IMG/VR virus record: IMGVR_UViG_3300032305_001759
Location: 1 to 24,083 of that record
DNA length: 24,083 bases
Strand: one strand, 5' to 3'
Source of the DNA: a virus
Taxonomy: Duplodnaviria > Caudoviricetes
The notes beneath the pieces are model-generated. The model saw nothing but the letters and a program-made list of their open reading frames with translations, was not told the DNA's origin and did no database searches. Shown piece by piece: positions 1,856 to 24,083 of this stretch. Numbering within the stretch: position 1 is the first letter of the stretch; each line of letters starts with the position of its first letter. The position numbers and the translations under genes were made by a program.

Positions 1856-1873
1856 AGTTAATCACCTTAAATT

Positions 1874-1882
1874 ATTATACCA
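1874..1882 (-). promoter_or_regulatory. Extended -10 promoter TGGTATAAT (putative late promoter)
   Basis: Intergenic; the same TGnTATAAT motif recurs at 12683, 13051, 14367 and 17636 upstream of minus-strand genes. Confidence 0.55.
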
Positions 1883-1890
1883 TGTTTGAT

Positions 1891-2526: not shown

Positions 2527-2529
2527 ATA

Positions 2530-3240: not shown

Positions 3241-3253
3241 TATTTTCTTTCTA

Positions 3254-4021: not shown

Positions 4022-4030
4022 AATTTTCTC

Positions 4031-5953: not shown

Positions 5954-5963
5954 ATTAAAATCC

Positions 5964-6614: not shown

Positions 6615-9600
6615 TAGATAGATACCTCAGTTGCAATAATTTCAATATTAGTTCCCGATGTTACTGCTACAGTAAGGATTGCATTTGGTGCAGAATAAGA
6701 TGGGGTAATTGTAACTGTTGGAGCAGTTCCCTGTGTAAGAATTGCATACTCTGTAATAACTGGAGTTGCTGCTCCTCTTGCTAACATTAATACCTTAGAA
6801 ACATAGTTTCCATTAGAAGTAGATCCATATACAATAAATTCTGCAGAAGAATGAGTTGTTGTATCAAATGAAGATGTTGCAGAAGTTGTTCCAGTTGATG
6901 CTTCCATTATTGCTTGTCCATTAATATTTACAGAAGTAAATTTTCCAGTAGATGCAGTTGTTGCACCAATTGAAGCATTATCAATAGTTCCTCCAGAAAT
7001 TACTGGGGTAGTTAAAGTTGGGCTTATTGCAAATACTGCTGAACCAGAACCAGTTTCATCTGATAATAATGCTGCTAATTCTGAAGAGTTTGTAAATGAA
7101 GAGCCTCCACTTGCAGTTCCCCACTCAATGGCAGTTCCTCCTGCATTAACTTTAAGAACTTGACCAGCAGTTCCAAGTGTTGTAAGACCAGTTCCACCTT
7201 TTGTGTATCCAATTTCTGTTCCAGACCAGGTTCCAGAAGATATCGTTCCAACAGTTGTAATGCTATCATCACCAGTATAAGTTCCACCTGCCACTGCTGC
7301 TAAAGTTGAGCTATAAGCCTGAATGTCTGTTCCAATTGCAAGACCAAGATTGGTTCTTGTTGTAGATGCATTTGTGACTTCAAGAGCACCAATTTTTAAT
7401 GTGTCAAATATTGCACCTGTAAAATCAATAATATTACTTGTTGGATCTAAAAGATTAGAAGCTAGTTTCCATTTTCCAGAATCTGAAGCATCTCTGATTA
7501 AACCAGTGTGGTACTGTATTGAAGCACTATGATTATATGCACCAAATATACCAATATCTACCAGGTCATTTGGATTGCTATCTGCAAGGTATATCAAAGG
7601 GTCTGTTACAACTAAGTCTGTTACATTTATATAACTTATTGATCCACTAATAGACCCAGTAATATTAATATCTCCACCAATGTATACATTATTATTTACA
7701 TATAAATCTTCCCCGATTCCTACGCCACCTGTAACAATTAATGCTCCAGTGGACATTGAAGATGAAGGAGTTGCATTTGTAATTGAAATAGCATTTGAAG
7801 TTGTTGCTCCACGGCTTGTTACAGAGGATAGAGTATCTGATTCAGAAGTTAAATAACTTCCAGCAAGTTGATATGTAGTTGAAGCGGATGCCTTAGTTAA
7901 GTAATTTGTTGAAGCAGAAGACTCTGTTAAATATCCAGTAAAATCAACATTTTGCCAAGATACGCTTGCACCGTTTGTTTGTAAGAACTTTCCACTGTTT
8001 CCAGTTTGATCGGGATAAGATGCTCCACCACCAGAAACTGTTTCATTTACCCACCTTGAAGTAGTGGTATCCCAAACAATTGCTTGACCATCTGAAGGAG
8101 TTCCAGTAATTACAACATTTGAAAGACTATCTAGTGTGTGATTATGAGCACTTGTAGAATATGTAGCTGTGTCTACTGACCATGTTCCAGAACCATTTGT
8201 CTTTAAGAATCCAGAAGTTCCTGTTAATGCAGCAATTGAGGAAAGGTCTCCATCATATGCTTGTACTGTTGAACCAATGTCTGTGGTTACAACCAAAGTC
8301 TTAGAAGATGGAATGGTTGTTCCATTAATAGATGTTGCTGTTGCTACACCAATATTTGGAGTAACAAAAATTGGAGAATCTGGAACTCCAATAGTAACGT
8401 TTCCAGCTGAAGCACTTACAGAAATTTCATTTATTGTTCCATTTATACTAAGAACACCAGAGTTTGAAATAACTCCAGTAGGATCATCATAAAAAAGACC
8501 TGAACCTAAAATGTTTCCAACAGCATCTTGTGCTCTTTCATCTGTATAGTAAAGATTAGTTCCTTCAGATATATTAGTTGTGCTATATGAAGAGATTCCA
8601 AGAAATGCTGTTGATTGATTTGAGTTATCTGGAAAAGTAAGATCTCCATTATTTTTAAATACCCAAGCTTTAGCTGCCCCAGCTCCACCTGTGTCTATGG
8701 TAACTCCAGTAGCTTCTGCAACAATAACAGAATTATTTAAACTTTTTATAGAAGTTTGTATATCATTTGTAATTTGAAGAGATGCACCTACTGATCCAAT
8801 ATCTGTTCCAACGGTTACTGAACCAGTAAATGTTGGGGAATTTGATGTTGCAAGACCTGCTTCATCTGCTGTTTTATTTATCCATAAACCATTTGATAAA
8901 TTATATGCCAATAATTCATTATTTTGAACAGATCCAGAAATTAAAATGTCGTGAATATCTTCTAAATGACCTCCACTTGATGGTCTTACAAATAAAATGC
9001 CAGTTGTTTGATGACGAATTATAATAATTGCAACTACAACAGCATGTGTTGGCTTTACGTTTGTTAGTTTTCCTGGAACAGTTGGATGAACATACAAGAG
9101 ATCTCCAGCAGCCCAGGTTTCATCTCCAACGCTTATTGCAGTTGAAGAAGTTCCTCTTGTATCTAAGTCTCTAACATATCCAAAATGTTGAACAAATCCG
9201 TTAATGCCATTACTAATACTTTCTGTTGCAAGACCCATAAATCTTACTTCTCTTACAGATCCATCTGCTACATATGGAGTTACTTGTATTCTTCCACTTG
9301 GTTCAACTCCAGATGCATACAGGGCAGTTCCTTTTGATATTGTAGAACCAGTTGAATTTCTTACTCTGTATACTGACTCTTCTCCAAGGTGTATATGTTT
9401 TGTGGATGATAGTCCAAGATTTAATGTACCTTCAACACTGTCCCATCCAAGTAATCCAGTTACTGGAGTAATATTTGCAGTTGTATCAAATTGAATAAAA
9501 TCTGGGGATGAAATAGAATTAATAGATGTCAAAGATCCACTTGTATTTAAATTAATAACATTGTTTATATCGTCATAAACTGCTGTAATATTTGTAGTGC

Positions 9601-9934: not shown

Positions 9935-9950
9935 AATAATTCCTTTTTTT

Positions 9951-9984
9951 AAAATGAGGGGCTGGGGTTTATTCCAGCCCCCCA
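9951..9984 (-). terminator. Intrinsic terminator/attenuator hairpin between two fibre genes
   Basis: GGGGCTGG (9958-9965) pairs with CCAGCCCC (9974-9981); followed by UUUU on the minus strand. Confidence 0.6.
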
Positions 9985-9998
9985 CATTATATTATACT

Positions 9999-11810: not shown

Positions 11811-11828
11811 ATATATTCACCTCCTTCA

Positions 11829-12302
11829 TTACGATAAATAAGCCTTTCCCGAAAATGCTCCGATAAAGGTTAAAACTACAGTACTTGAATTTGGATAGTT
11901 ATATGACCCCTCAACAACTGTTCCTGCTGTATCAACTACTGTAATATTAGGGGTAAACCCTAATCCATGTGTTATGTTCCATACTGAAGATGGTACTGAT
12001 TGAGTGTGAACATAACCAAGCTCTTGACTTCCAACTAAATCTGTTGGAGTTCCCCAACCAGAATTTGTTTTTGGACCATACAAATTCATATTTGAGGTAT
12101 TTAAATAAAAATCTCCATCTATACCAAGACCTGCTGAAGGAGCTACAACACCATTTAAGACACCAGTTCCTCTTGCACCTTGAGGACCAGAAGTTCCTAA
12201 ATCTACATTTACTATTTGTTCTGTTAAATTAACATCTACATTTGTTTCATTTACAGAAACATTATTATTTATTTGATTAAGTTCTATTTTAACTTCAGGC
12301 AT
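11829..12302 (-). CDS. Virion structural protein (GPQGARG motif; C-terminal WNITHGLG domain)
   Basis: 157 aa; G.DGDFYLN...LYGPK...W and HTQ..PS.VW.I.H.LG motifs typical of phage fibre-associated proteins; TAATG overlap with the upstream gene. Confidence 0.7.
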   Translation of the reverse strand: MPEVKIELNQINNNVSVNETNVDVNLTEQIVNVDLGTSGPQGARGTGVLNGVVAPSAGLGIDGDFYLNTSNMNLYGPKTNSGWGTPTDLVGSQELGYVHTQSVPSSVWNITHGLGFTPNITVVDTAGTVVEGSYNYPNSSTVVLTFIGAFSGKAYLS

Positions 12303-12655
12303 TATCTAGTTACCTCTGGAGTTACATTAAATGTACCTTCGATCAATCTATCAACAATATTAGATGGACTTACTATTTCTAGGTCATATACATGTGTTCC
12401 AGTAGGGAATTGAGAAGTTGCACTTGCTGAAATTAATATATCAATTGTTCCAGCAGATCCACCTAATGTGATTCCACTACCAGATACTAATGAAACTAAT
12501 GGATTGTCAGAATAATATGCTTCTCTTACTTGAAGTCTTGAGGAATACCCAGATAAATTTACTGGAACTTCATCCAGGGTGTATGTTAAAGTCCTTCTAA
12601 ACGTGCTTCCTTGTGGACAAACAAAGTTTACAAGCCCTGGGGTCATATTGGGCAC
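12302..12655 (-). CDS. Putative baseplate/tail adaptor protein (BppU-N-like)
   Basis: 117 aa; QGSTF...PVNLSGY..RLQVR...YDLEI...RLIEG.F.VTPEVTR; AGGA SD. The start may be GTG 12655 or ATG 12646. Confidence 0.65.
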   Translation of the reverse strand: MPNMTPGLVNFVCPQGSTFRRTLTYTLDEVPVNLSGYSSRLQVREAYYSDNPLVSLVSGSGITLGGSAGTIDILISASATSQFPTGTHVYDLEIVSPSNIVDRLIEGTFNVTPEVTR

Positions 12656-12682
12656 TCCTATTTAAATTTTCTTACTTTTCCT

Positions 12683-12691
12683 ATTATACCA
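12683..12691 (-). promoter_or_regulatory. Extended -10 promoter TGGTATAAT
   Basis: Intergenic motif upstream of the 12655 gene; member of the recurrent TGnTATAAT set. Confidence 0.55.
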
Positions 12692-12698
12692 AACTATT

Positions 12699-13013
12699 TT
12701 ATTTCTTATCTGCAATATATGCTACTAAAACATCATGAATTATTCTTAGTTCTCCACTTAATTGCTTAACATCTGATTTAATTTCATTTTGATTTGAGTC
12801 AAGATTATTTACCTTGTCTGCCATGCTAGATCCACCATTTGGAAATATTTGATGTTCTACACGATCAAGGCGATCTGCTATAGTTCTACCCTTTTCATCT
12901 TTACCAAGAATTCTTTCAAATTTTCTTACTGTTACATATCCAACGCTTAAAATAGCGGTAAGAGATAAAAACATCTGCCAGTTTTCGACAAACATAGATA
13001 TTGAATTATTCAT
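12699..13013 (-). CDS. Small membrane protein (N-terminal TM helix plus coiled coil), possibly lysis-associated
   Basis: Hydrophobic WQMFLSLTAILSVGYVTV; RLDRVEHQIFPNGGSSMADKVN motif that I recall from actinophage membrane proteins. Confidence 0.6.
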   Translation of the reverse strand: MNNSISMFVENWQMFLSLTAILSVGYVTVRKFERILGKDEKGRTIADRLDRVEHQIFPNGGSSMADKVNNLDSNQNEIKSDVKQLSGELRIIHDVLVAYIADKK

Positions 13014-13082
13014 TGTTTTATGGTATACTCCAAAGTAAGACTTAAAAACAATTATAACATATAAATAACATAGGAGTAATAA

Positions 13083-13304
13083 ATGCCTGATACTAAAGAA
13101 AAAGTAAAGAAAGTATTGAAAATTTCAGATCGTTGTGATAGATGTGGTGCTCAAGCTTTTGTACTTGCTACTGGAGTTTCAGGGGAATTAATGTTTTGTG
13201 GTCATCATTATCACAAATACGAATATGCAATTACTCAATGGGCTTATAAGATTGTTAATGAATTAGACACTATTAATGAAAAGTCTGCAAGTAGTAATAT
13301 TTAA
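13083..13304 (+). CDS. Small Zn-binding protein of actinobacterial type (DRCDRCGAQA...FCGHH; DUF7455-like)
   Basis: 73 aa; AGGAG SD; CxxC...CxxH; TGGTATACT promoter-like motif at 13021-13029; the only credible plus-strand gene in the late block. Confidence 0.75.
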   Translation: MPDTKEKVKKVLKISDRCDRCGAQAFVLATGVSGELMFCGHHYHKYEYAITQWAYKIVNELDTINEKSASSNI

Positions 13305-13408
13305 ACTGGAAGTACTGGACTATCTTTATTTATTTCTAAATATATAGCATATTCTTCATCCGTCATTTCACGAACTTCATCATCTACTTGTATTAGTGGC
13401 TTATCCAT
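13301..13408 (-). CDS. 35-aa acidic protein, probable fibre chaperone/partner
   Basis: Not in the ORF track. MDKPLIQVDDEVREMTDEEYAIYLEINKDSPVLPV; start overlaps the end of the upstream fibre gene; REMTxEE motif typical of such small genes. Confidence 0.65.
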   Translation of the reverse strand: MDKPLIQVDDEVREMTDEEYAIYLEINKDSPVLPV

Positions 13409-14357
13409 TATTATATCCATACACCCTTATTGTTCCACCTGACATTGTGCCAGTTCCAGAAACATTTACTGTAAATCCTGTATAAGAACTTGCAACGGCA
13501 TGATAGCCATTAGAATTACCAAGAAAAACGTTGTTCCAAGAGTTGTACGCATTGCTATCCATTCTTGTATGTATTGAAAGGTATGGAGAATATAGCTTTA
13601 TTTGCATAAGACCTGACTCTGTTGAACCGCCACCAATCCAGTTCCATTGAGTGGCATTTGACTGTGAAGCAACGGACATTGCCGAGCCATGGCTGTAACG
13701 GAGAATACTACTATATCCAGTGCTAGAACCATTAAGTGCAAAAGTTAGTTGACTATCACCAGATGATGAAGCCATAACTCCACCAGTCCAAAGTATTTCA
13801 TAATTATCATATGCTGCAGAAAATGCATCATTAACTACTACTGATGTAACTCCAGATCCAACTGTTTGTGTTTTTACCAAAACCATGCCAGGTGTTAGAT
13901 TAGTAGAAACACCATTTCCCAGTTTAGAAACATCTATATATCCACCTCTTGCATCCCCACCTTGTTCAAAAATTCTTAATCTATTTTGAAAAACATCTAT
14001 TGTTACGCCATCTCCAGTAAGGGTTGTATTTGTAGCAGCTTTTCCAAGAAGTACTTCTCCACCCTCATCTCCACCAACAGTTTGTGCAACTAGTTTTGTA
14101 CTAGCACGAACTTCTGGGGCAGTAATATTTCCAGAGAATGTTCCACCTGATTTTGTAGCATATGTAGTGCTGGCAGAAGTCTGTGTTAAATATGTAGAAG
14201 ATGCAGAAACTTTATTAAGATATATAGCACTTGCTGAGGATTCTTCAAGGTAATCAGCAGTTAAATCAATACCAATAATATCCCAAGCAGTTCCATTAAA
14301 TTCATATCCGTCAAAAATTTGTCCAACACTTGCGGATCCAGGAAATATTGTAGCCAT
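13401..14357 (-). CDS. Tail fibre / receptor-binding-like protein
   Basis: 318 aa; YLxxxSASxT repeats; C-terminal GMVLVKTQT...FSAAYDNYEI...YTGFT...GTIRVYGY domain. Confidence 0.75.
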   Translation of the reverse strand: MATIFPGSASVGQIFDGYEFNGTAWDIIGIDLTADYLEESSASAIYLNKVSASSTYLTQTSASTTYATKSGGTFSGNITAPEVRASTKLVAQTVGGDEGGEVLLGKAATNTTLTGDGVTIDVFQNRLRIFEQGGDARGGYIDVSKLGNGVSTNLTPGMVLVKTQTVGSGVTSVVVNDAFSAAYDNYEILWTGGVMASSSGDSQLTFALNGSSTGYSSILRYSHGSAMSVASQSNATQWNWIGGGSTESGLMQIKLYSPYLSIHTRMDSNAYNSWNNVFLGNSNGYHAVASSYTGFTVNVSGTGTMSGGTIRVYGYNNG

Positions 14358-14366
14358 AGTATTTTA

Positions 14367-14375
14367 ATTATATCA
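14367..14375 (-). promoter_or_regulatory. Extended -10 promoter TGATATAAT, near-leaderless
   Basis: 9 nt upstream of ATG 14357; no SD. Confidence 0.5.
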
Positions 14376-14387
14376 TTAGATAGATTG

Positions 14388-14591
14388 TTACCATTTACCA
14401 AGAGGGCATGAAGCAAATTCTAATTTTACTTTTGCTTTCATAAAACATCCACATTCTTTACATACCCCTGCAATAAGAGATGGACATCCTTCACAAATAG
14501 AAAATCTTTCTTCTTCTTTTGCTTCAGATGCTCTTGGATATTTTTCCTGATTTATTAAATGCCATGGTCTTGCATTATAGTTTTCACTCAT
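14388..14591 (-). CDS. Small Cys-rich protein (DUF6171-like)
   Basis: R..ICEGCP...CKECGCFM.AKV.L..ASCPLGKW; AAGGA SD. Confidence 0.75.
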   Translation of the reverse strand: MSENYNARPWHLINQEKYPRASEAKEEERFSICEGCPSLIAGVCKECGCFMKAKVKLEFASCPLGKW

Positions 14592-14599
14592 ATTATTCC

Positions 14600-15562
14600 T
14601 TAAATAGCATATCGGACTACTATTATACCAGTTCCGCCAATTCCACCATTTGCACCATTGTTTCCACCTTTACCGCCATTTCCAGTATTCGTAGATCCTG
14701 CAGATCCAGTGCCAGATCCATCAGTTCCACCATTTCCACCTACACCATAAGTTCCAAGCCAACTTGCATATCCAGCACCGCCAGTAGATCCAGAAGCGTT
14801 TGCGGTAGAACCAGCACCACCGCCTCCTGCAGCAGCAGAAGGTGCACCAGCACCAGAAAATGATGAGTTTGAACCTCCAGCACCAGAAGAAGAAAATGGT
14901 GCAGTTGCTCCACCACCATTGCCACCAGCAGCAGTATAAGCACCAAATGAAGACTGTCCACCATTACCACCAGCAGTACCAGCAGTGTCACCAGTATTTC
15001 CAGTTCCTGCAGTTCCTGAAGCTCCAATAGTTACGGCAGCACTAGCACCAGTAGTCAAAGTAATTCCAGTTTGAACATTTACAATGCCACCTGCTCCACC
15101 GCCTCCAGATCGTGTACCATTATCATAAGGATTACAGTTATAAGGATTACAGTTATATGGATTACAGTTATATGGATTACATTGTTAAGTTCCGCATGCG
15201 TAAGAACCACAGCCGCAACCGCCATCGCAATCAGTGCACTCATAATTCATATTGTCGTCATAACATCCACAGTTATACTCGCTCCAATATACAACATCGT
15301 TGCAGTACTGAGTACATGTTTGATAGCAAGTCTCGTAACATGTTTCATAACAAGTATTATAAGCTCTTGACTTTGAGCCACCTGCTCCACCGCCACCACC
15401 GCCAACTACAACAATGTCAACAATGGCTGGACCAGAAAGTATTGAAAATGTTCCATTAGAAGTAAATGTGTGATACTTGAATCCAGAAGATATGCTAGTT
15501 GTTCCACCAGTTGCATCAACTCCACCAACTCCAGAGGCAGTTATACCATAATTACTTAGCAT
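14600..15562 (-). pseudogene. Glycine-rich virion protein with Cys-rich insert, interrupted by a single in-frame TAA at 15185-15187
   Basis: Track ORFs 15185-15562 and 14600-15058 are in the same frame. Reading through TAA gives ...CGT*QCNPYNCNPYNCNPYNCNPYDNGTRSGGGGAGG...GIIVVRYAI, completing one glycine-rich domain (YHTFT.NGTF...VVVGGGGGG...GGGGAGG...GIIVVRY). Confidence 0.75.
15124..15183 (-). repeat. 15-bp tandem repeat encoding (CNPYN)n
   Basis: GGATTACA units begin at 15129, 15144, 15159 and 15174. Confidence 0.9.
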
Positions 15563-16120
15563 TTAAACATTACCAAGCCTATGTATGCTAATTTTAATTG
15601 GTCCTTCAATTAATGCATTTTCAATTTTAACATTGTATGCCATACTAAAAAAATTACTTTCTGAAGTATTTTCACTAATTTCTCTTTCACTGGATTCTGG
15701 ATTTAATACTTTATTAATTATCTTTTTTTGGATAACAAAAATTTTAAAATTTACTAAACTTGATTCTTGAAAATTTGAAAACATTATTGTTTCATTTAAT
15801 AAATTAACCATTGTAAAAGTTCCTGGATTTTCATCTAATGATTTAATTTTATTTGCTGTAAAATTAATATAATATAATTCTTCAGGCTTTCCTTCTTGAT
15901 AAAAAGGGGCTTCTTCAAAAACAATAGACTCTTCTTGGCTAACAAAATCTTCATTAATAACTGAATACGCAACTTCTTCAAAATTACCATACACTTCTTC
16001 ACAATCAACAAGAATACCATTTTGAACTACATTCATTTTATTTTCTGATGTAACTAAAACAAATTTTCCATCTTCTAAGTCATTAGAAAAATCTTCAATA
16101 TTTTCTATAATTTTAAACAT
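15563..16120 (-). CDS. Hypothetical acidic protein
   Basis: 185-aa ORF abutting neighbours in the operon; AGGA SD. Confidence 0.65.
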   Translation of the reverse strand: MFKIIENIEDFSNDLEDGKFVLVTSENKMNVVQNGILVDCEEVYGNFEEVAYSVINEDFVSQEESIVFEEAPFYQEGKPEELYYINFTANKIKSLDENPGTFTMVNLLNETIMFSNFQESSLVNFKIFVIQKKIINKVLNPESSEREISENTSESNFFSMAYNVKIENALIEGPIKISIHRLGNV

Positions 16121-16131
16121 TTATATCATCC

Positions 16132-16767
16132 TTAAGCTGCTAGGTCTCCTACAAGAGACCATAGATTTGTAGAAATTTTTACTAGAGTTGCACCAGAGTA
16201 TTGTGCACGAAATTTTGCTCCAGGTGTGGATCTTACAATAGAGGTTTGAGCACCATTTGTTTGACCAGCAACTGTTACTTGTCCAGCTCCTAGCTGAACC
16301 ATATCTATTCTTGTTCCAACTGGAAAGTCAACAGAATTATCTGCAGGAACTGTTATTGTAAATGGTGCAGAAGAGTTTAATGGAATAAAATCATTTGAAT
16401 CAGTAAGTGCTAAAGTGTAGTTAGAAGTTACTGCTGAAAGAACTACTTGTGGAGAGGTTGCAGTTAAGTAAGTTGTTGAAGCAGATGCTTGAGTTAGGTA
16501 GGTAGTTGAGGCAGATGCTTGAGTTAGGTAGGTAGTTGAGGCAGATGCTTGAGTTAGGTAGGTAGTTGAAGCAGAAGCCTGGGTAAGATATGCTGATAAA
16601 TCTGAACTATCTAAAAAGTAATCTAAAGCAGACCAGGCACTTGATCCATTTCCAATTTTAAACTTTCCAGTATTTGTTTCAAATCCAATTTCACCTGAAG
16701 AAAGGGTAGGATTTGTAGTAGTCCAATTTGCTGAGGTATCTCTTCTTACCTGAATTTTAGTTGCCAT
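16132..16767 (-). CDS. Fibre protein with major-tropism-determinant N-terminal (Mtd_N / hyaluronidase-N-like) domain
   Basis: IQVRRDT.ANW...NP.L..GEIGFETNTGKFKIGNG..AW..LDY; YLTQASASTT repeats; C-terminal FPVGTRI...Q.GAGQVTV...W.LVGDL domain. Confidence 0.8.
   Translation of the reverse strand: MATKIQVRRDTSANWTTTNPTLSSGEIGFETNTGKFKIGNGSSAWSALDYFLDSSDLSAYLTQASASTTYLTQASASTTYLTQASASTTYLTQASASTTYLTATSPQVVLSAVTSNYTLALTDSNDFIPLNSSAPFTITVPADNSVDFPVGTRIDMVQLGAGQVTVAGQTNGAQTSIVRSTPGAKFRAQYSGATLVKISTNLWSLVGDLAA
16463..16591 (-). repeat. 30-bp tandem repeat encoding YLTQASASTT x4
   Basis: GCAGATGCTTGAGTTAGGTAGGTAGTTGAG repeated almost perfectly. Confidence 0.9.
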
Positions 16768-16776
16768 AATAACTAA

Positions 16777-17037
16777 TTATATCATTTCATTAGTAAGATT
16801 ATCTTGTCTTTCTTTTGCAGATTGAATATCTGCTGCTAATACTACCGCTTCTCTATCTGCAGGAATTTCAGTAATAGAAGGATCCGCTAACATTCTAGCA
16901 ACTTCTAATTGAAATATTTCTTCCATTGCAATTCTTGCACGTTCTGAAGCGGCATTTTGAATCCATTCTTGTGTATCATAAGCTACATAAGAAAGTGCTT
17001 TATCTTGAGCTTCATTTAATTCAATTTCATATTTCAT
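16777..17037 (-). CDS. Small acidic helical protein, probable fibre partner
   Basis: 86-aa ORF immediately after the C1q gene. Confidence 0.65.
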   Translation of the reverse strand: MKYEIELNEAQDKALSYVAYDTQEWIQNAASERARIAMEEIFQLEVARMLADPSITEIPADREAVVLAADIQSAKERQDNLTNEMI

Positions 17038-17051
17038 ATTATTATTATATC

Positions 17052-17627
17052 CTATCCTATTAAAAATCCACTAAAAAATGAATTTTCATTTCCATGCATT
17101 CCTGCACCAGTAATTAAAACTCTAACGTTATCATTAACTGCTAAAGATATAACTGTTGAAATATTTATTACTGGTCCGTAAGAAGAGTCGTTAAAATCGT
17201 TGTACGCTCTTGAAGGTACTTGTGCTCCATTTTTTTGAAAAACTATTGTTGTATTTCCAGTCACCCCTTGTTCAACAAATCCATAATAATTAAAGTGATA
17301 TAGTCCAGCAACTGGGGCTGTAAAAAGTCCAGTACCTAAGTTAATATAGCTACCATTGTTAATATTTGTTGCATTATATGTAAGGTTTCCAGACTGAGTT
17401 GTCAGCGAAATGACATAAACACTAAAAGCTGGAACTGTTGGATTTGTAGCTATTCCAGTAAATATAGGAGAAGCTTTTGGTGCATAAGTACTTGAAGCAG
17501 AAGCCTGTGTTAAATATGTTGTAGAAGCAGAAACCTGCGTCAGGTATGTGGCTGAGGCAGAAGCCTGGGTAAGCAAGGATCCAATTTGAGATGAAGTAGC
17601 TGTTCTAACAACTGTTACATTTGCCAT
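17052..17627 (-). CDS. C1q-domain fibre protein
   Basis: PAFSVY...TG.FTAPVAGLYHF...L..ND.V.V...FSGFLIG is the C1q/TNF-like signature; N-terminal YLTQASAS repeats. Confidence 0.85.
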   Translation of the reverse strand: MANVTVVRTATSSQIGSLLTQASASATYLTQVSASTTYLTQASASSTYAPKASPIFTGIATNPTVPAFSVYVISLTTQSGNLTYNATNINNGSYINLGTGLFTAPVAGLYHFNYYGFVEQGVTGNTTIVFQKNGAQVPSRAYNDFNDSSYGPVINISTVISLAVNDNVRVLITGAGMHGNENSFFSGFLIG

Positions 17628-17635
17628 AATGCTTA

Positions 17636-17644
17636 ATTATACCA
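17636..17644 (-). promoter_or_regulatory. Extended -10 promoter TGGTATAAT heading the structural block
   Basis: 8 nt upstream of ATG 17627, no SD (leaderless-type). Confidence 0.6.
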
Positions 17645-17814
17645 TTTTTAAAAAACTCGCAAAAAATCCGCAAATTAAAAACGCAAAAATCGGCGAAATA
17701 GTATACCCCCATTCCCCTTATAACAACATACAACTACGTTGTTCTATATTTATATATGGAGGATTTTTCGGGGGGATTTATAAATATGCAGAAATATCCC
17801 TAGTATGAAGAATA

Positions 17815-18228
17815 TTAGATATATCCGCCATCTTTAAGACCTGCTTGTATTTCATATATATTACCTTGCCAATGATTTCTATATATGATAAAAGATTTAA
17901 TAGTGGCAAATAAATATAAAGCCAGAAATATGACTCCCCCGAATTTAGCAAATTGTTCACTATGCTTTAATTCATGTCTTAATATTCTATTTGCTAGATC
18001 ATGAGGAGTTCCTGATTTGCATTTATCACAATGCCTGTCTTGTTTGGCTAATATAACATCTCCTATTGTAATAGCCCAAGAAGAGTTGTATTTACCTTTT
18101 CTACCATAGTTAATATAAATACCATTGTTTAGTTGAATTGTCGTACCGCCAATTATTTTTGAAATTAATAAACCCAGAAATGTTGACAAATTAAGTCTAT
18201 TTAGCCTTTGCCTTTTAGAGTTATCCAT
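17815..18228 (-). CDS. Putative HExxH zincin-like protein (DUF4157-like)
   Basis: AITIGDVI...LRHELKHSEQF...YL...N.YE..A motif. Confidence 0.65.
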   Translation of the reverse strand: MDNSKRQRLNRLNLSTFLGLLISKIIGGTTIQLNNGIYINYGRKGKYNSSWAITIGDVILAKQDRHCDKCKSGTPHDLANRILRHELKHSEQFAKFGGVIFLALYLFATIKSFIIYRNHWQGNIYEIQAGLKDGGYI

Positions 18229-19208: not shown

Positions 19209-19355
19209 TTAGAAATCATCATCATCATCAAAATAATTTTCTATTTCTTGGTCACTCTCGCACATAATGCAATAGTTAATTTCCCAAGCCGTTAATTTAT
19301 CATCACAAGTCAAGCACTTATTCTTGGTGATGTTTTCAAATGCTAGTTCAGTCAT
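19209..19355 (-). CDS. 48-aa Zn-finger microprotein with acidic tail (paralog of 19795-19920)
   Basis: Not in the ORF track. MTELAFENITKNKCLTCDDKLTAWEINYCIMCESDQEIENYFDDDDDF; GAGGGG SD. Confidence 0.8.
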   Translation of the reverse strand: MTELAFENITKNKCLTCDDKLTAWEINYCIMCESDQEIENYFDDDDDF

Positions 19356-19646: not shown

Positions 19647-19668
19647 AACTTAGCATACCTGACTGACA
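19647..19668 (-). promoter_or_regulatory. TGTCAG-N10-TAnnnT promoter (leftward)
   Basis: TGTCAG-TCAGGTATGC-TAAGTT. Confidence 0.75.
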
Positions 19669-19680
19669 ATTTCTACCTGA

Positions 19681-19790
19681 ATCTCACTATTTGAGATGAA
19701 CAGTAGGTGAACAATAAATCACAGGTTATCCACAGCTGCCCGCGCCCACGCTGTCGGGCGTGTCGTTATGTGTGATCAAAAATGCCCTGG
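19681..19790. promoter_or_regulatory. Regulatory island 1 (GCCCGCGCCC core)
   Basis: ATCTCA-N5-TGAGAT 19681, 11-bp-period TGAAC repeat about 19697-19712, TTATCCACA 19726, GCCCGCGCCC 19738, GGGCGTGTCG 19756. Confidence 0.7.
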
Positions 19791-19794
19791 ACTT

Positions 19795-19920
19795 TTATTC
19801 GTATGTAGAATAATCGTCAGGCTCACACATAATGCAGTAGGTATTTTCCCACGATGTTAATTTGTCATCACACTCAATACATTTTGTATTGGTGATGTTT
19901 TCAATTAGTAATTCATTCAT
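19795..19920 (-). CDS. 41-aa Zn-finger microprotein
   Basis: Not in the ORF track. MNELLIENITNTKCIECDDKLTSWENTYCIMCEPDDYSTYE; GAAAGGA SD. Confidence 0.8.
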   Translation of the reverse strand: MNELLIENITNTKCIECDDKLTSWENTYCIMCEPDDYSTYE

Positions 19921-19939
19921 AATGAATCCTTTCGTTAGT

Positions 19940-19997
19940 GCTAAGACTTATTTGCTAGGCTCATCCGTTAGGCTTATTTGCTAGGCTCATTCTTAAC
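19940..19997 (-). ncRNA. Candidate structured leader RNA, copy 2
   Basis: RNA GUUAAGA-A-UGAGCCUAGCAAAUAA-G-CC-UAAC-GG-A-UGAGCCUAGCAAAUAA-G-UCUUAGC; stems covary with copy 1. Confidence 0.7.
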
Positions 19998-20008
19998 TAT
20001 TTAATTTT

Positions 20009-20030
20009 AATCTATCAGATAGGTCTGACA
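20009..20030 (-). promoter_or_regulatory. TGTCAG-N10-TAnnnT promoter (leftward)
   Basis: TGTCAG-ACCTATCTGA-TAGATT. Confidence 0.75.
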
Positions 20031-20034
20031 GTTT

Positions 20035-20169
20035 TTATCCGTAGTATTCATTGAATTCATCTACGGTCATTTTACCTTTGTAGGTATCACAGCAGAACAT
20101 CTGGTCAGCAGACATTTCACTTTCACAGAAGCAACAGATGTATTCTGTTTCATTTAGTAAGTTAAACAT
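20035..20169 (-). CDS. 44-aa Cys-rich microprotein
   Basis: Not in the ORF track. MFNLLNETEYICCFCESEMSADQMFCCDTYKGKMTVDEFNEYYG; AGAAAGGAG SD. Confidence 0.75.
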   Translation of the reverse strand: MFNLLNETEYICCFCESEMSADQMFCCDTYKGKMTVDEFNEYYG

Positions 20170-20199
20170 TCTTAACTCCTTTCTTTATCTTATGTCTTT

Positions 20200-20221
20200 A
20201 GACTAGCAGAGGGGTCTGACA
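20200..20221 (-). promoter_or_regulatory. TGTCAG-N10-TAnnnT promoter (leftward member of divergent pair)
   Basis: TGTCAG-ACCCCTCTGC-TAGTCT. Confidence 0.8.
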
Positions 20222-20237
20222 TTTTTACCCCTTTTTC

Positions 20238-20378
20238 GGGCGTGTCGCAAAACTATTTTTGTGATGTACATCATAGAACATCTGTTCGAATGCCCGCGCC
20301 CTTGTGGATAACCTGTGTATAAGATGGCTATAAAATGCCCCTGAAAAGTTTACCAAATGTTTACCTAAACACACCCCC
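20238..20378. promoter_or_regulatory. Regulatory island 2 between divergent promoters
   Basis: GGGCGTGTCG 20238, TGTGA-N6-TCATA 20260, TAGAACATCTGTTCGA 20274, GCCCGCGCCC 20292, TGTGGATAA 20303, TGTGTATAA 20314, GTTTAC-N5-GTTTAC 20348-20364. Confidence 0.75.
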
Positions 20379-20392
20379 TAAATGGCATAAAT

Positions 20393-20414
20393 TGTCAGAC
20401 CCCTAGTGTATGAT
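20393..20414 (+). promoter_or_regulatory. TGTCAG-N10-TAnnnT promoter (rightward)
   Basis: TGTCAG-ACCCCTAGTG-TATGAT. Confidence 0.8.
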
Positions 20415-20445
20415 GAAATCATAAGACAAAAAGAAAGAGGTCAAA

Positions 20446-20631
20446 ATGACTTACTTAGTAACAAACAAGAGAGACAACATCTCTAACGAATACATCTCTA
20501 TTCACTCTGCCTTGCAAATGGTTGCAAGTTGCTATGACGGTGCAGGTATCACTTGCGAAATCGTAGACACCCAAACGGGTGAACAGGTAGAAATCTATCG
20601 AGATACCCTAAGGGGCTGGCGTGTCGCTTAG
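20446..20631 (+). CDS. Hypothetical early protein
   Basis: 61 aa; AGAAAGAGG SD after promoter. Confidence 0.7.
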   Translation: MTYLVTNKRDNISNEYISIHSALQMVASCYDGAGITCEIVDTQTGEQVEIYRDTLRGWRVA

Positions 20632-20637
20632 CGAAAC

Positions 20638-20659
20638 TGTCAGACCTCTATGCTAAAGT
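20638..20659 (+). promoter_or_regulatory. TGTCAG-N10-TAnnnT promoter
   Basis: TGTCAG-ACCTCTATGC-TAAAGT. Confidence 0.8.
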
Positions 20660-20688
20660 AAAACTAACAAACAAAGAAAGGGCATCAA

Positions 20689-20856
20689 ATGTCACTAGCA
20701 CTAATCTCAATCACAATCCTACTATCTAGCCTATTTGCTGGATTCCTTGCTTATGCTGTAATAACTATCAGCGAACTAAAGAAAAATAAAAAGATGTGGG
20801 AACAAGCCTACACACAATTAGCCATTGAATTTATGGTACTAAAGGCAGGTAAGTAA
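20689..20856 (+). CDS. 55-aa membrane protein
   Basis: MSLALISITILLSSLFAGFLAYAVITISELKKNKKMWEQ...; AGAAAGGG SD. Confidence 0.7.
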   Translation: MSLALISITILLSSLFAGFLAYAVITISELKKNKKMWEQAYTQLAIEFMVLKAGK

Positions 20857-21023
20857 TGATGACACGCAAAGACTACATCAAAATTGCAGAAATTCTAAAT
20901 GCTTATCACTTAGACATTGACTCACAAGTATTTGAGGATTTGCTTTCAGACTTTCAAACATTTTTCAAAAGAGATAATTCAAACTTCGACTTAACACGAT
21001 TCAGAGATGCGGTAATTAAATAA
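20856..21023 (+). CDS. 55-aa phage protein (MTRKDY...DNxNFDxxRF type)
   Basis: MMTRKDYIKIAEILNAYHLDIDSQVFEDLLSDFQTFFKRDNSNFDLTRFRDAVIK; TAATG-coupled. Confidence 0.75.
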   Translation: MMTRKDYIKIAEILNAYHLDIDSQVFEDLLSDFQTFFKRDNSNFDLTRFRDAVIK

Positions 21024-21175
21024 TGAAAATACAACACAACAAAATTGACGGAACTTTCGTAATTGGAATTTCTTTCTCTAACTACTACAACAAAAAAACT
21101 TCAACCAAAAATACTTCCCTGATTTTTGATTTAGGTTCTCGCTCACTTGCATTTACATTTAGAGGTGACTACTAA
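21023..21175 (+). CDS. 50-aa hypothetical protein
   Basis: MKIQHNKIDGTFVIGISFSNYY...; TAATG-coupled at both ends. Confidence 0.65.
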   Translation: MKIQHNKIDGTFVIGISFSNYYNKKTSTKNTSLIFDLGSRSLAFTFRGDY

Positions 21176-21255
21176 TGAATAGTTTTTATTCTTGGGTTTT
21201 AATTTTATCCCTTGCAGGTTTTGTTTATTTGCTTGTAGATAATTTTACAGACTAA
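21175..21255 (+). CDS. 26-aa hydrophobic peptide
   Basis: MNSFYSWVLILSLAGFVYLLVDNFTD; GAGGTG SD, TAATG overlap. Confidence 0.55.
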   Translation: MNSFYSWVLILSLAGFVYLLVDNFTD

Positions 21256-21261
21256 CAAAAC

Positions 21262-21352
21262 GAGCTGATCGAACGCCTGTTCGAAAAGCCCGCGCCCCTG
21301 TGGATAACTATTGTTATGATAGTTAAGAAATAGCCTGGAATATTCTGGAAAA
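21262..21352. promoter_or_regulatory. Regulatory island 3 with perfect SOS box
   Basis: TCGAACGCCTGTTCGA 21269-21284, GCCCGCGCCC 21288, TGTGGATAA 21299. Confidence 0.75.
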
Positions 21353-21385
21353 TTTTTATAAATTATTTCTAATAAACCTATTTTT

Positions 21386-21407
21386 TGTCAGACCCTTGTG
21401 CTAGTAT
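21386..21407 (+). promoter_or_regulatory. TGTCAG-N10-TAnnnT promoter
   Basis: TGTCAG-ACCCTTGTGC-TAGTAT. Confidence 0.8.
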
Positions 21408-21437
21408 CAGAGATACCTACTAAGAAATGAGAACGAC

Positions 21438-21974
21438 ATGAGCTACGAAAACACCTACCGCCAAATTGTTGCACAGGCTAAGCCGTCACAGATTGAACAA
21501 GCCACACAATGGTATGCAGATGCTGAGGCAGTTGCTCATGAAGTAGTGTCTATCTATAAGTCAAGAGGCATGGATGTATCTTTAGAACAGGCTGCTTCGA
21601 TAATTTCAGCGTTCTCACCTCGTCAGCGTTGGTCAACCAATGTTCGTCAGGCACTTAGATTTGCTCATGGCGATGAGGAAATGCGTTGCCTACCTAACAA
21701 TCTTAAAATGGCTAAGAGTGCTTTAGAAAATGGTTTCAATGCACTTAATGGAAAGAAAACAAATTCATTTGCTCGTAACATTGCAGGTGATCAAAATGCA
21801 ATCACGATTGACATTTGGATGATGAGGTCAGCAGGTATTCCAAAAGATAGTCCTAGTAAAAAAGACTACACACAATTATCTGAGGCGATTGAAAAAATTG
21901 CAATGGAAACTGCAATGACACCTCGTACCGTTCAAGCATTGGTATGGATTGTGTATAGGGGTAGTGCTGCATGA
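21438..21974 (+). CDS. Phage protein of DUF7178-like family (possible helix-hairpin-helix DNA-glycosylase-related fold)
   Basis: WY...SP.Q.W..N...KT.SF..NI.G...TID.WM.R...Y..L...I......P..VQA..W motif pattern. Confidence 0.55.
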   Translation: MSYENTYRQIVAQAKPSQIEQATQWYADAEAVAHEVVSIYKSRGMDVSLEQAASIISAFSPRQRWSTNVRQALRFAHGDEEMRCLPNNLKMAKSALENGFNALNGKKTNSFARNIAGDQNAITIDIWMMRSAGIPKDSPSKKDYTQLSEAIEKIAMETAMTPRTVQALVWIVYRGSAA

Positions 21975-22068
21975 AAAAGCCCGCGCCCCGTTTTCCACAG
22001 GCTGTTAAGAAGTTGTGGATAAGTCCCTTGAAAAGTTTACCAAATGTTTACTTTAGACACGCCCTGAA
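21975..22068. promoter_or_regulatory. Regulatory island 4
   Basis: GCCCGCGCCC 21979, TTTTCCACA 21991, TGTGGATAA 22014, TGAAAAGTTTACCAAATGTTTAC 22029-22051 (identical to 20342-20364), GACACGCCC 22056. Confidence 0.75.
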
Positions 22069-22078
22069 ATACTAAAAT

Positions 22079-22100
22079 TGTCAGACCCCTATGGTAAAGT
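22079..22100 (+). promoter_or_regulatory. TGTCAG-N10-TAnnnT promoter
   Basis: TGTCAG-ACCCCTATGG-TAAAGT. Confidence 0.8.
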
Positions 22101-22127
22101 GAAACCATAATGAAAGGAAGTACCAAA

Positions 22128-22280
22128 ATGAATGGTAACTCAAAAGTCGTAATTCTACGCAAGGCTATGTCTGCCCTTGAACTTGCAGATAGTCACGCTA
22201 AGCACGGTGACACCCGTACAGAAAAAATCTGGCGTGATGAATACACACGCTTAATGAATCGTTACTTAGGAGTGAAATAA
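22128..22280 (+). CDS. 50-aa hypothetical protein
   Basis: MNGNSKVVILRKAMSALELADSHAKHGDTRTEKIWRDEYTRLMNRYLGVK; GAAAGGA SD. Confidence 0.7.
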   Translation: MNGNSKVVILRKAMSALELADSHAKHGDTRTEKIWRDEYTRLMNRYLGVK

Positions 22281-22471
22281 TGAGAGTCTATGAAATTGCT
22301 AAGGAACTTAGTATTCCTTCAAAAGATGTCAGAATGTATTTAGAATACATTGGGCAACCCGTAAAGTCTGCATCGTCAAGCGTTGAACCAATGTTTGCTG
22401 AAATAGTTATCAAAAGAATAAACAAGACCTATGAGGAATTTGTGCCTTGTTGGTCATTCCCACCATTCTAA
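22280..22471 (+). CDS. Stand-alone translation initiation factor IF2 N-terminal (IF2_N) domain protein
   Basis: MRVYEIAKELSIPSKDV...L..IG..VKSASSSVE matches the actinobacterial IF2 N-terminus pattern RVxELAKExGxxSKxV...L...GEFVxSASSTxE. Confidence 0.8.
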   Translation: MRVYEIAKELSIPSKDVRMYLEYIGQPVKSASSSVEPMFAEIVIKRINKTYEEFVPCWSFPPF

Positions 22472-22473
22472 AA

Positions 22474-22495
22474 TGTCACACCTCTATGCTAGAAT
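22474..22495 (+). promoter_or_regulatory. TGTCAC-N10-TAnnnT promoter (variant)
   Basis: TGTCAC-ACCTCTATGC-TAGAAT. Confidence 0.7.
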
Positions 22496-22527
22496 AAATA
22501 CCCTACCTACAAGAAATGAGAAATAAA

Positions 22528-22812
22528 ATGGGACTAAACTTCGCAACTGAATTATCCACTATGGATACAATGCCAATGGAGCAACAGATTAACTTGCACC
22601 TACAATACAATTTCTATCCACCCGTTCCATCGTCAATGGTACAGCCTTGCATAGATGCTATCAACGCAATTTGGAATGAGGACTACTTTGCAGAAATAGA
22701 ATTGCCTCAAGGCGTTCTATGGCGTGGTAGTAACTATGCACCTGCTCAAGCAATTGCAGACAATCATAGATTAGATGCTTGGCTAATGGTAGATGACTGG
22801 GAGGACGAATGA
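22528..22812 (+). CDS. Hypothetical phage protein (HLQYNFYPPVP motif)
   Basis: Track ORF 22516-22812; start moved to 22528 because the 22516 ATG lies inside the recurrent AGAAATGAGA leader motif. Confidence 0.75.
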   Translation: MGLNFATELSTMDTMPMEQQINLHLQYNFYPPVPSSMVQPCIDAINAIWNEDYFAEIELPQGVLWRGSNYAPAQAIADNHRLDAWLMVDDWEDE

Positions 22813-22940
22813 AATTTATAGCAAGCCCTGAGCAACTTAGGGCACGTCTTGAGTTGCGTAGAAGTAACGCCTCTGCTAAACACGTTAATAAAAAAAAGTA
22901 TTCCAGAAAACCAAAACACAAAAAGGAATTGTTTGACTAA
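22809..22940 (+). CDS. 43-aa highly basic peptide with ArfA-like tail
   Basis: MKFIASPEQLRARLELRRSNASAKHVNKKKYSRKPKHKKELFD; GGAGG SD; ATGA overlap. Confidence 0.7.
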   Translation: MKFIASPEQLRARLELRRSNASAKHVNKKKYSRKPKHKKELFD

Positions 22941-23071
22941 TGAAATTTATCTTTGCACTATTTGTAATTGCACTTCTTGTATTGCCTGTCATTGGTTTTG
23001 TTGATGGACTTGGTTATAAAAAAAATAATAATGAATTTTTAGATACTGCAAGATGGATAGATGGGAAGTAG
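22940..23071 (+). CDS. 43-aa membrane protein
   Basis: MKFIFALFVIALLVLPVIGFVDGLGYKKNNNEFLDTARWIDGK; TAATG-coupled. Confidence 0.6.
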   Translation: MKFIFALFVIALLVLPVIGFVDGLGYKKNNNEFLDTARWIDGK

Positions 23072-23072
23072 G

Positions 23073-23148
23073 CAGCTGAAAAAGCCCGCGCCCCCTGTGG
23101 ATAACTTTATTTAAGAAGTTAAGAAAAGATCCTGGACCCCCTGGAAAA
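23073..23148. promoter_or_regulatory. Regulatory island 5
   Basis: CAGCTG 23073, GCCCGCGCCC 23084, TGTGGATAA 23096, GATCCTGG and CCTGG 23128-23144. Confidence 0.75.
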
Positions 23149-23150
23149 AT

Positions 23151-23172
23151 TGTCAGACCCTTATGCTATGAT
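23151..23172 (+). promoter_or_regulatory. TGTCAG-N10-TAnnnT promoter
   Basis: TGTCAG-ACCCTTATGC-TATGAT. Confidence 0.8.
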
Positions 23173-23203
23173 GAAATCATACCTACTAAAGAAATGAGAT
23201 GTT

Positions 23204-23446
23204 ATGTTTACACTTAATAACATTCGTAAGAATGAAGAATTAAATTACTTAGTTTCTTCCCTGCCTTGTCCAAATTGTGATAGCACTCTATCTGTTGAAA
23301 TTACCCCTGACAAATTGTGGGCTTACAATCAAGGTGGCTATGCCCAAGATGTATTGTCTGCCTACGATGAGGGTGTTCGTGAGCGTTTCATTACTGGAAT
23401 GTGTGAAATTTGTTGGGCTCTAATGTTTGATTTTGATGATGAATAA
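23204..23446 (+). CDS. Zn-ribbon protein
   Basis: 80 aa; CPNC...Q.V......RE.FITG.C..CW..MF. Confidence 0.75.
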   Translation: MFTLNNIRKNEELNYLVSSLPCPNCDSTLSVEITPDKLWAYNQGGYAQDVLSAYDEGVRERFITGMCEICWALMFDFDDE

Positions 23447-23448
23447 AA

Positions 23449-23470
23449 TGTCAGACCCTTGTGATAAGAT
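23449..23470 (+). promoter_or_regulatory. TGTCAG-N10-TAnnnT promoter
   Basis: TGTCAG-ACCCTTGTGA-TAAGAT. Confidence 0.8.
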
Positions 23471-23498
23471 AAAACTACCTACTAAGAAATGAGATAAA

Positions 23499-23621
23499 AT
23501 GTCAGATACAGATTTGATTAAAGATTTATTCGAGGGTGTCATAGATGACAATGCCCTTGCAAAATTGTCTAAAGAAGAATTAGATGCAATTAACAAAATG
23601 CTAACGGAAGCAGGTTACTAA
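23499..23621 (+). CDS. 40-aa acidic protein
   Basis: MSDTDLIKDLFEGVIDDNALAKLSKEELDAINKMLTEAGY after the conserved leader motif. Confidence 0.7.
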   Translation: MSDTDLIKDLFEGVIDDNALAKLSKEELDAINKMLTEAGY

Positions 23622-23622
23622 A

Positions 23623-23964
23623 ATGGGTGCAAGAATTAATTTCGTATTTGATGACGGAACAGATAGTCTAGTTAATCTTTATTCACATTGGGGCGAGTCT
23701 AATTGGAAAGATGATTTAGTACACGCATTGGTACACGCACAACCACGAAAAGGTGATACCTCATACTTTACCCGTATGGTTATCTCACACCTAATGAAAG
23801 ACCAGATGTTAGATGAAACTGGTTTTGGTATCTATGCAATTAGCCGTTCAGAGATTGGTAACCAATTATTTGACAAGACAGTTGTATTAGATTTAGTAAA
23901 CAACCTACTTACTGATTTAGATAATGATTATTCGGTTGAATTGTATGGAGAGGTGTTTGCATAA
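23623..23964 (+). CDS. Hypothetical phage protein (MGAR...LYSHWG type)
   Basis: 113 aa; LYSHWG...A.PR.GD.SY.TR...ETGFGI motif. Confidence 0.75.
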   Translation: MGARINFVFDDGTDSLVNLYSHWGESNWKDDLVHALVHAQPRKGDTSYFTRMVISHLMKDQMLDETGFGIYAISRSEIGNQLFDKTVVLDLVNNLLTDLDNDYSVELYGEVFA

Positions 23965-24083
23965 TGAAAAGTTATTTTGCAATAGACGGTAGTTATGGTG
24001 ATGCAAATGAAATTGCAATCATTGACACAGATAAGTTTACTGAAGATGATTGGCAAGCCATTGAAGAAGAATTAGATTATTAC
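23964..24083 (+). CDS. Hypothetical protein (partial, runs off window)
   Basis: TAATG-coupled MKSYFAIDGSYGDANEIAIIDTDKFTEDDWQAIEEELDY...; GGAGAGG SD. Confidence 0.65.
   Translation, partial: MKSYFAIDGSYGDANEIAIIDTDKFTEDDWQAIEEELDYY

Follow-up and report, generated by a model that had tools for sequence, protein, structure and literature searches.

A free-standing, phage-borne IF2_N module with a conserved C-terminal tail in the terminal small-gene block of freshwater siphoviruses

The window, that is, the whole stretch of DNA analyzed here, is a 24,083-base virus record estimated to be 23% complete. An earlier note on this DNA had described a 63-aa ORF at 22280..22471 on the plus strand as a stand-alone mimic of the N-terminal domain of IF2, and both the coordinates and the sequence of this ORF are borne out. 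The encoded protein reads MRVYEIAKELSIPSKDV...VKSASSSVE...FPPF. The features at the locus are as follows.

22079..22100, plus strand: promoter-like box TGTCAGACCCCTATGGTAAAGT, located before a two-gene unit
22110..22280, plus strand: preceding small ORF of 56 aa, or of 50 aa if read from the ATG at 22128
22268..22272, plus strand: Shine-Dalgarno sequence AGGAG, 7 nt 5' of the ATG, read from the sequence
22280..22471, plus strand: stand-alone IF2_N gene, stop codon included, with intact copies elsewhere and a Pfam match
22280..22414, plus strand: IF2_N module, residues 1-45, covering profile positions 4-48 of 53; a six-frame search gives the same match
22388..22456, plus strand: long third helix, residues 37-59 in the model, the middle of which is the most variable part of the family
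22439..22468, plus strand: family-specific tail FVPCWSFPPF, residues 54-63
22474..22495, plus strand: next promoter-like box, 3 nt past the stop codon, which marks the end of the unit

The ATG of the IF2_N gene shares bases with the stop codon of the preceding ORF (TAATG, 22278-22282). This small ORF has no family match, and other small ORFs take its place in relatives. Since the 5' neighbor is not the same in the window, L002 and L016, the gene has no fixed partner gene. The GTPase and C-terminal domains of IF2 are not joined to the phage module, which has its own Shine-Dalgarno sequence and its own stop codon.

The gene is real, conserved and stand-alone, and is more than a chance ORF. A word-indexed database search retrieved 56 relatives of the protein, 51 of which are exactly 63 aa long. 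All 56 are unnamed or annotated as 'hypothetical protein', the contigs that carry them reach 108 kb, and the gene family has no name in the databases examined. All 63 codons are intact in the 23 copies compared (the window copy and 22 viral loci). Pairwise comparison of 13 unique nucleotide versions of the gene (78 pairs, 76 of them usable) puts the median dN/dS ratio at 0.22 and the highest at 0.38. Searches of cultured phages by megablast with window positions 20000-24083, and by tblastn with the 63-aa protein and the proteins P0078 and P0120, gave no match, and a PHROGs search with the 63-aa protein gave nothing better than E 0.4. A description of stand-alone phage IF2_N proteins was not found in the literature searched.

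The minus strand of the window up to about 19.5 kb is occupied by tail-fiber genes with Collar, FG-GAP, C1q and Mtd_N domains, and the remainder consists of small ORFs. The tail-fiber-like region (3-18228, minus strand) is unusually rich. It encodes four Collar-domain proteins, a 640-aa protein with seven FG-GAP repeats, two proteins that contain, respectively, a C1q domain (17052-17627) and the N-domain of the major tropism determinant (Mtd_N; 16132-16767), and a 1123-aa ORF that is almost without a family match. Three small minus-strand ORFs (19209-19355, 19795-19920 and 20035-20169; 48, 41 and 44 aa) carry paired CxxC-like motifs and look like tiny zinc-ribbon proteins; two of the three are clear paralogues. 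In L002, a similar small ORF lies 5' of the IF2_N gene. The gene at 21438-21974 (plus strand), the largest of the small-gene block, encodes a 178-aa DUF7178 protein (E 2.3e-32; phrog_3842) and is kept in L002.

A complete relative of this phage, G001, has a genome of 101,664 bp with terminal repeats. Its IF2_N gene (7070..7261) belongs to a terminal block of small ORFs, and this block runs in the direction opposite to that of all remaining genes. The latter encode tail fibers, ribonucleotide reductase, portal, protease, capsid and a 2537-aa tape measure, as well as DnaB, primase, SSB, a DnaE-type polymerase, a recombinase and lysis functions. G001 encodes two SSB-like proteins (L031:5797-6207 and L030:9518-10168), whose C-termini, ...EEPDPWA and ...SVDW, are aromatic-residue endings and not the bacterial P-F tip. 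Each of the three relative genomes searched contains one IF2_N match. The family sits in the terminal small-gene block of freshwater siphoviruses of about 100 kb. By their core genes, these phages are nearest to Streptomyces phages of the Stanwilliamsviridae, with about 51% identity for the polymerase and about 40% for the capsid, and an actinobacterial host is likely. IF2_N was found in none of the three nearest cultured relatives by core genes, the Streptomyces phages Wakanda, Samisti12 and BillNye. The GC content is 33-39%. The stretch is present in 11 runs of 11 freshwater or lake water studies (word shares 0.26-0.40), a count that leaves out two runs that may be its source, and also in one run labeled as a fungus metagenome.

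The small-gene block is studded with promoter-like boxes. A search for the pattern TGTCR, 11 bases, TANNNT found 10 boxes in the window against 2.5 expected, a number reached in none of 100 shuffles, and all of them are within 19647-23470. The boxes sit between ORFs, before small ORFs of both strands, and are oriented with the downstream genes. They are near-identical, with a consensus of about TGTCAGACCCcTaTGCTAnnnT; examples are those at 20393-20414 and 23449-23470. Of the 13 strict boxes in G001, 12 lie within 1481-10091, and the layout around the IF2_N gene is the same. In the more distant phage L117, there are 7 boxes against 0.45 expected, and its homologue of the gene has one box just upstream and the next just past its stop codon. 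We take these boxes to resemble the PafBC-dependent (RecA-NDp) promoters of Actinobacteria. A scan for sigma-70 promoters gave 13 sites, which is not above the 15.2 found in shuffles, and the same scan returned a single terminator-like site, which is weak and on the wrong strand. The early expression that had been proposed for the protein fits the location of its gene in the terminal small-gene block with promoter-like boxes of its own. In two of four lake metatranscriptomes, contigs from RNA libraries cover relatives of the gene, with DNA carry-over as a possible source. Among the RNA-library contigs, X15 spans the flanks and hardly the gene, and X17 covers only a stretch downstream of it; holes in these contigs prove nothing.

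By sequence and by predicted fold, the 63-aa protein is a member of the IF2_N family. The HMMER search gives the Pfam IF2_N model (PF04760) at E 9.9e-09 and 35.3 bits, above the curated threshold of 25.3 bits. The next Pfam families, led by Sigma70_r3 (E 0.017), are far weaker, and up to E 10 the protein matches neither MerR nor excisionase models. Among 33 relatives, IF2_N matches 32, with a best E of 1.9e-15; MerR_1 matches two, at E 0.068 or worse, and HTH_17 and excisionase models are absent among the 25 families shown. When a profile of the family was compared with the sequences of solved structures, only the N-termini of Thermus IF2 were significant (E 4.7e-9 to 8.2e-9), residues 1-51 of the profile aligning to Thermus IF2 4-54, and no MerR-family chain appeared at E up to 10. 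Across the 33 relatives, R2, A7 and S14 are invariant, and E5, V17, G25, K29 and S30 are conserved in at least 90%. These positions carry the signature of IF2_N: an R-V strand, an alanine in helix 1, a serine at the start of helix 2, a glycine after helix 2 and a K-S wing. The earlier note had weighed a generic MerR or excisionase helix-turn-helix against the IF2_N module. The module is the better match, and Pfam, the family profile and the predicted fold agree on it.

An AlphaFold2 model of the protein was built from 33 sequences and has a pLDDT of 88.6. The model contains a one-residue strand bridge, helices at residues 3-10 and 14-23, the wing VKSASSSVE and the long helix 37-59. Over the last 13 residues, the confidence is about 70, and the tail is modeled as partly helical. 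The model was compared with 48,161 representative solved chains using VIA-align. The N-domain of Thermus IF2 (4b3x_A) is the only row with a Z score of 8 or more (Z 10.0, rmsd 1.7 Å, 63 of 63 residues, 24% identity), and the alignment reaches residue 67 of Thermus IF2. Foldseek places the model on Thermus IF2 with TMq 0.67-0.76 and on the 30S-bound N2 sub-domain of IF2 (7uiu) with an rmsd of 1.0 Å over 47 columns; none of the Foldseek matches attains E 0.001. The predicted fold is a winged helix akin to that of MerR.

The kinship with MerR in fold raises the alternative that the protein is a small MerR-like winged-helix DNA-binding regulator, which could act, for example, on the promoter-like boxes of the block and switch early transcription. 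Its tail would then contact RNA polymerase or mediate pairing. The structural matches that follow IF2 in the VIA-align comparison are of this kind, namely pSK1 Par (Z 6.3) and RacA (Z 6.1), followed by the regulatory domain of a mycobacterial cyclase (Z 5.8) and by classical MerR regulators (Z 3.6-4.8); all MerR-type scores are below the range that VIA-align counts as distinctive. Foldseek also returns RacA, BldC, Par, CueR and CadR. In BFVD, nothing reaches E 0.001, and the weak rows are small HTH, MerR-like and excisionase phage proteins. Further support comes from weak Pfam echoes of HTH families among the 33 relatives (Sigma70_r3 in 17 and PF0610-like_N in 18), from the 10 near-identical boxes of the block, which are available for a regulator to read, and from a pattern kept in helix 2 of the family, R/K-x-Y-x-x-x-x-G, which we take to be MerR-like. 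The sequence evidence points the other way, as set out above, with MerR_1 in only two of the 33 relatives, no HTH_17 or excisionase model among the families shown and no MerR chain in the sequence search of solved structures. In addition, 13 of 14 close family members are neutral to acidic (net charge 0 to -3). Small DNA binders with sequence specificity look different in this respect, and the charge argues weakly against this reading. We regard an ordinary regulator as somewhat unlikely, and it is a live alternative. If it were correct, the lesson would be not to infer mimicry from IF2_N matches in short phage proteins.

The IF2_N module occurs in many other settings. A profile search of 1.84 billion representative proteins gave 88 matches at E 0.001 or better. 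Five short proteins among them (P0071-P0074 and P0085) match the phage protein end to end with 37-57% identity. The contig of P0074 is a further viral one and belongs to the same broad lineage; for P0073 and P0072, a search of viral contigs gave no match. A metagenome scan yielded one partial locus, L116. The only longer form of the family that was found is P0157, located on a single 712-bp contig and probably the product of read-through or of an assembly error. In P0157, the gene is fused in frame to one that lies upstream and encodes a basic protein. The latter belongs to the DVNP family (PF19060, E 1.5e-15), which takes its name from dinoflagellate/viral nucleoproteins, and some relatives have a DVNP-like gene directly upstream.

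Among 29 long matches scanned, 28 carry IF2_N and only three have the IF2 GTPase domain, one of them weakly. Three others are Ser/Thr kinases, one has weak AAA matches, and a KAP NTPase, a caspase-like peptidase, PLD, HhH, Sel1 and VKOR are found once each. A survey of diversity-generating retroelements (DGR) also lists a target protein that combines IF2_N with an FGE-sulfatase domain (PMC5758913). In the ESM Atlas, the cluster of the phage protein itself is viral, and other clusters of 60-65-aa IF2_N proteins exist. The fusions, the DGR target and the ESM clusters indicate that the module is widely shuffled and that short free forms are not unique. The description of the protein as a mimic of IF2 was therefore right about the module and too narrow about its model, because IF2_N is fused to many proteins other than IF2. 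RNase E, which the earlier note had named as a second carrier and possible competitor, is absent among the 29 long matches and among the 120 matches listed of 7009.

Seven bacterial metagenome proteins (P0086, P0075, P0082, P0096, P0097, P0147 and P0117) carry N-terminal IF2_N repeats. The partners of these repeats include PLD domains like those of Mokosh MkoB and MkoC, a KAP NTPase, Ser/Thr kinases and a caspase-like domain. In P0117, IF2_N is accompanied by ...YTPPF... in the interior of the protein and by RNWIAH, a motif that we take to be HEPN-like, in its C-terminal part.

The partners of IF2_N include effector types that are common in phage defense. The protein might accordingly serve as an anti-defense decoy, in which the free module would titrate the ligand of host immune proteins that employ IF2_N for sensing or targeting, or would poison their assembly; a decoy for a defense system had also been among the earlier suggestions. 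P0086, with two IF2_N repeats and a PLD domain, matches Mokosh MkoB at E 1.3e-30 and MkoC at E 1.6e-17, the MkoB match beginning at residue 88, which we read as inside the second repeat. PD-T4-6 and Stk2 are the models matched by the kinase fusions; for the KAP NTPase fusion, the matches, to PifA and QatA, are weak. Between the window protein and the first repeat of this KAP NTPase protein, identity is 52% over 42 residues. These are likenesses at the level of domains, however, and any Ser/Thr kinase or PLD protein matches such models. PADLOC gave no match for five of ten fused or multi-repeat proteins, nor for the window protein. We consider a role as a decoy highly improbable.

A close bacterial relative of the phage protein was not found in 185,579 species genomes, in which the best matches have 34-60% identity over 25-61 residues. 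Of the 80 bacterial loci kept, 78 are long IF2-like ORFs, and the scan of bacterial genome contigs revealed neither a prophage nor a donor. Because the genome-scan matches are a pattern-biased set of true IF2 N-termini, their taxa give no host call. A phmmer ranking of IF2 N-termini against multi-domain proteins was uneven, since proteins with two repeats score double and the IF2 set was chosen by pattern, and it allows no statement on which group is closer. The wing VKSASSSVE is the actinobacterial IF2 form. P0111, which the family profile matches, is itself the N-terminus of an actinobacterial IF2 and shares 84-96% identity with the N-termini of named Bifidobacterium IF2 proteins. BLASTP aligns the window protein with Bifidobacterium IF2 at 23 of 55 identical positions (42%, E 1e-9), over residues 5-55 only. 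Among named bacterial proteins, the window protein thus comes closest to actinobacterial IF2, of which it resembles the module at the very N-terminus.

The reading of the protein as an IF2 module missed the C-terminal tail, which lies beyond the Pfam match, is invariant and has no equivalent in IF2. In the close family, the tail has the consensus [DE]-F-V-P-x-W-x-x-P-P-F, and all 21 members compared share F54, P56, W58, P61, P62 and F63, while the preceding helix is variable. The pattern DF-x3-[YW]-x3-PF-COOH is retained in all five distant full-length relatives, and in one of these the C-terminus reads EPPF. Among the real genes of the window and of G001, only the IF2_N gene has a PF ending. 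The module is a known one that is here free-standing and phage-borne, and the conserved tail is new.

Another alternative makes the tail the business end of the protein. The C-terminal tip of actinobacterial SSB is a documented protein-docking peptide (PMC7847540, PMC3616714). Mycobacterial SSB is reported to end in ...DDEPPF, with the last Phe needed for ClpX activation (PMC7847540), and for Streptomyces SsbA the terminal DEPPF is reported to be essential for its contacts with proteins (PMC3616714). The PPF-COOH end of the phage protein could copy this actinobacterial tip and plug the pockets of SSB clients, so that repair, restart and recombination enzymes and ClpX would be blocked or redirected, with the IF2_N fold as a scaffold or nucleic-acid anchor. 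P61, P62 and F63 are invariant in the close family, the terminal P-F is kept in the distant relatives, and the tail is as conserved as the core of the module, with a variable helix between them. The likely actinobacterial host also suits this reading. However, the acidic run of the SSB tip is missing, a single D/E being fixed 10-11 residues from the end, and the tail is modeled as partly helical and not on a long floppy linker. The SSB-like proteins of the phage itself end otherwise (...EEPDPWA and ...SVDW), and a likeness of three residues can be due to chance. We think it unlikely that the tail acts as an SSB tip. If it does copy the tip, the protein would physically link the hubs of gene expression and of DNA maintenance.

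The reading that we prefer, tentatively and as possible rather than probable, joins both parts of the protein. The IF2_N winged helix and a docking peptide in the tail would form a free 'address tag' that occupies the docking sites of the IF2 module in the host. The phage module would keep the docking surface of IF2, and the sites occupied could lie either at the RNA polymerase, on NusA, or at the 30S shoulder, on helix h16 of 16S rRNA. There, early in infection, it would compete with IF2 and with other module-bearing host proteins. The invariant aromatic/proline tail with its PPF-COOH end would provide a second handle, with which another protein would be held or blocked. As for the effect on the host, we conjecture that transcription-directed initiation would be loosened, or that NusA or ribosomes would be captured for phage messages.

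Both candidate sites are taken from recent studies of IF2. In E. coli, Domain I of IF2 (N1, residues 1-50, together with strands at 57-90) is reported to bind the C-terminal part of NusA, on the evidence of pull-down, of in-cell crosslinks at positions 13, 50 and 88 and of loss upon NusA truncation (PMC12297416). An AlphaFold 3 model described in the same report puts the contact on the KH2 and AR1 domains of NusA (PMC12297416). In Pseudomonas, N2 (residues 266-312) is placed on h16 of 16S rRNA, with Ser277-Val278-Lys279 and Arg259 as the main interface, and contacts h16 via the turn before its second helix (PMC9192638). Provided that the 47-column superposition starts at residue 2 of the phage protein and contains no gaps, Ser277-Val278-Lys279 would fall on the invariant P13-S14-K15, the register being good to about one residue. 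By analogy, the competition with IF2 for a partner that had been suggested earlier is plausible, and NusA and h16 are named candidates for this partner.

Several observations weigh against docking competition. IF2_N is not specific to IF2, as only 3 of the 29 long relatives have the IF2 GTPase, and the partner may thus be a generic one. The NusA contact in E. coli also uses IF2 residues 57-90, which the phage protein lacks, and the AR1 domain of NusA, which is missing in many bacteria, actinobacteria included. Deletion of the N-terminal region of E. coli IF2 is reported to cause no phenotype at 37 °C, so that the effect of simple competition might be small. Minimal MerR-type DNA binders share the fold as well (Z 6.1-6.3), and the 185,579 species genomes contain no close bacterial donor.

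A quite improbable extension of docking competition makes the protein a two-handed hijacker. Its IF2_N hand would hold a hub common to all IF2_N-tagged host proteins, namely IF2 and the kinase, PLD, KAP-NTPase and caspase-type proteins with a likeness to immune effectors. Its PPF tail, as a copy of the SSB tip, would bring or block an SSB client such as ClpX, thereby evicting IF2 as well as defense effectors targeted to the ribosome or to RNA polymerase. If this were true, IF2_N would be a general address tag for the transcription-translation machinery of Actinobacteria.

The N-terminal module of IF2 was long without a job, and its anchoring to the 30S shoulder and to NusA was shown only in 2022 and 2025, respectively; the docking hypothesis has been testable only since these findings. 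By making the module alone, from a gene that is under purifying selection and has a promoter-like unit to itself, the phage provides a natural experiment, which suggests that the docking site of the module is worth attacking during infection. At 63 residues, the protein can also be used to probe the binding partners of the module in Actinobacteria, in which many other proteins carry it.

Three known systems can be compared with the phage protein. With the bacterial IF2 module (the N/G1 domain of Thermus thermophilus in 4B3X and 4KJZ, N2 of Pseudomonas aeruginosa in 7UIU and N1 of E. coli), it shares both sequence family and fold. Unlike IF2, the phage module is phage-encoded, is free of the GTPase and the linker and has the invariant PPF tail, and it lacks the tail that wraps h16 in Pseudomonas N2. 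The minimal MerR-type domains (RacA 5I41/5I44, pSK1 Par 8CSH and BldC 6AMA) are similar in size and have a similar order of strand, two helices, wing and helix. The structural match to these domains is clearly weaker, however (Z 6.1-6.3 versus 10.0), there is no significant sequence match, and the close phage family is not basic. The third system is the C-terminal tip of actinobacterial SSB. The phage tail likewise ends in an invariant Pro-Pro-Phe with a free carboxylate, and the likeness is restricted to these last three residues. In contrast to SSB, the phage protein has neither an acidic run nor an OB fold nor a long disordered linker, and five residues before its C-terminus the tail has a fixed aromatic position, occupied by W or Y.
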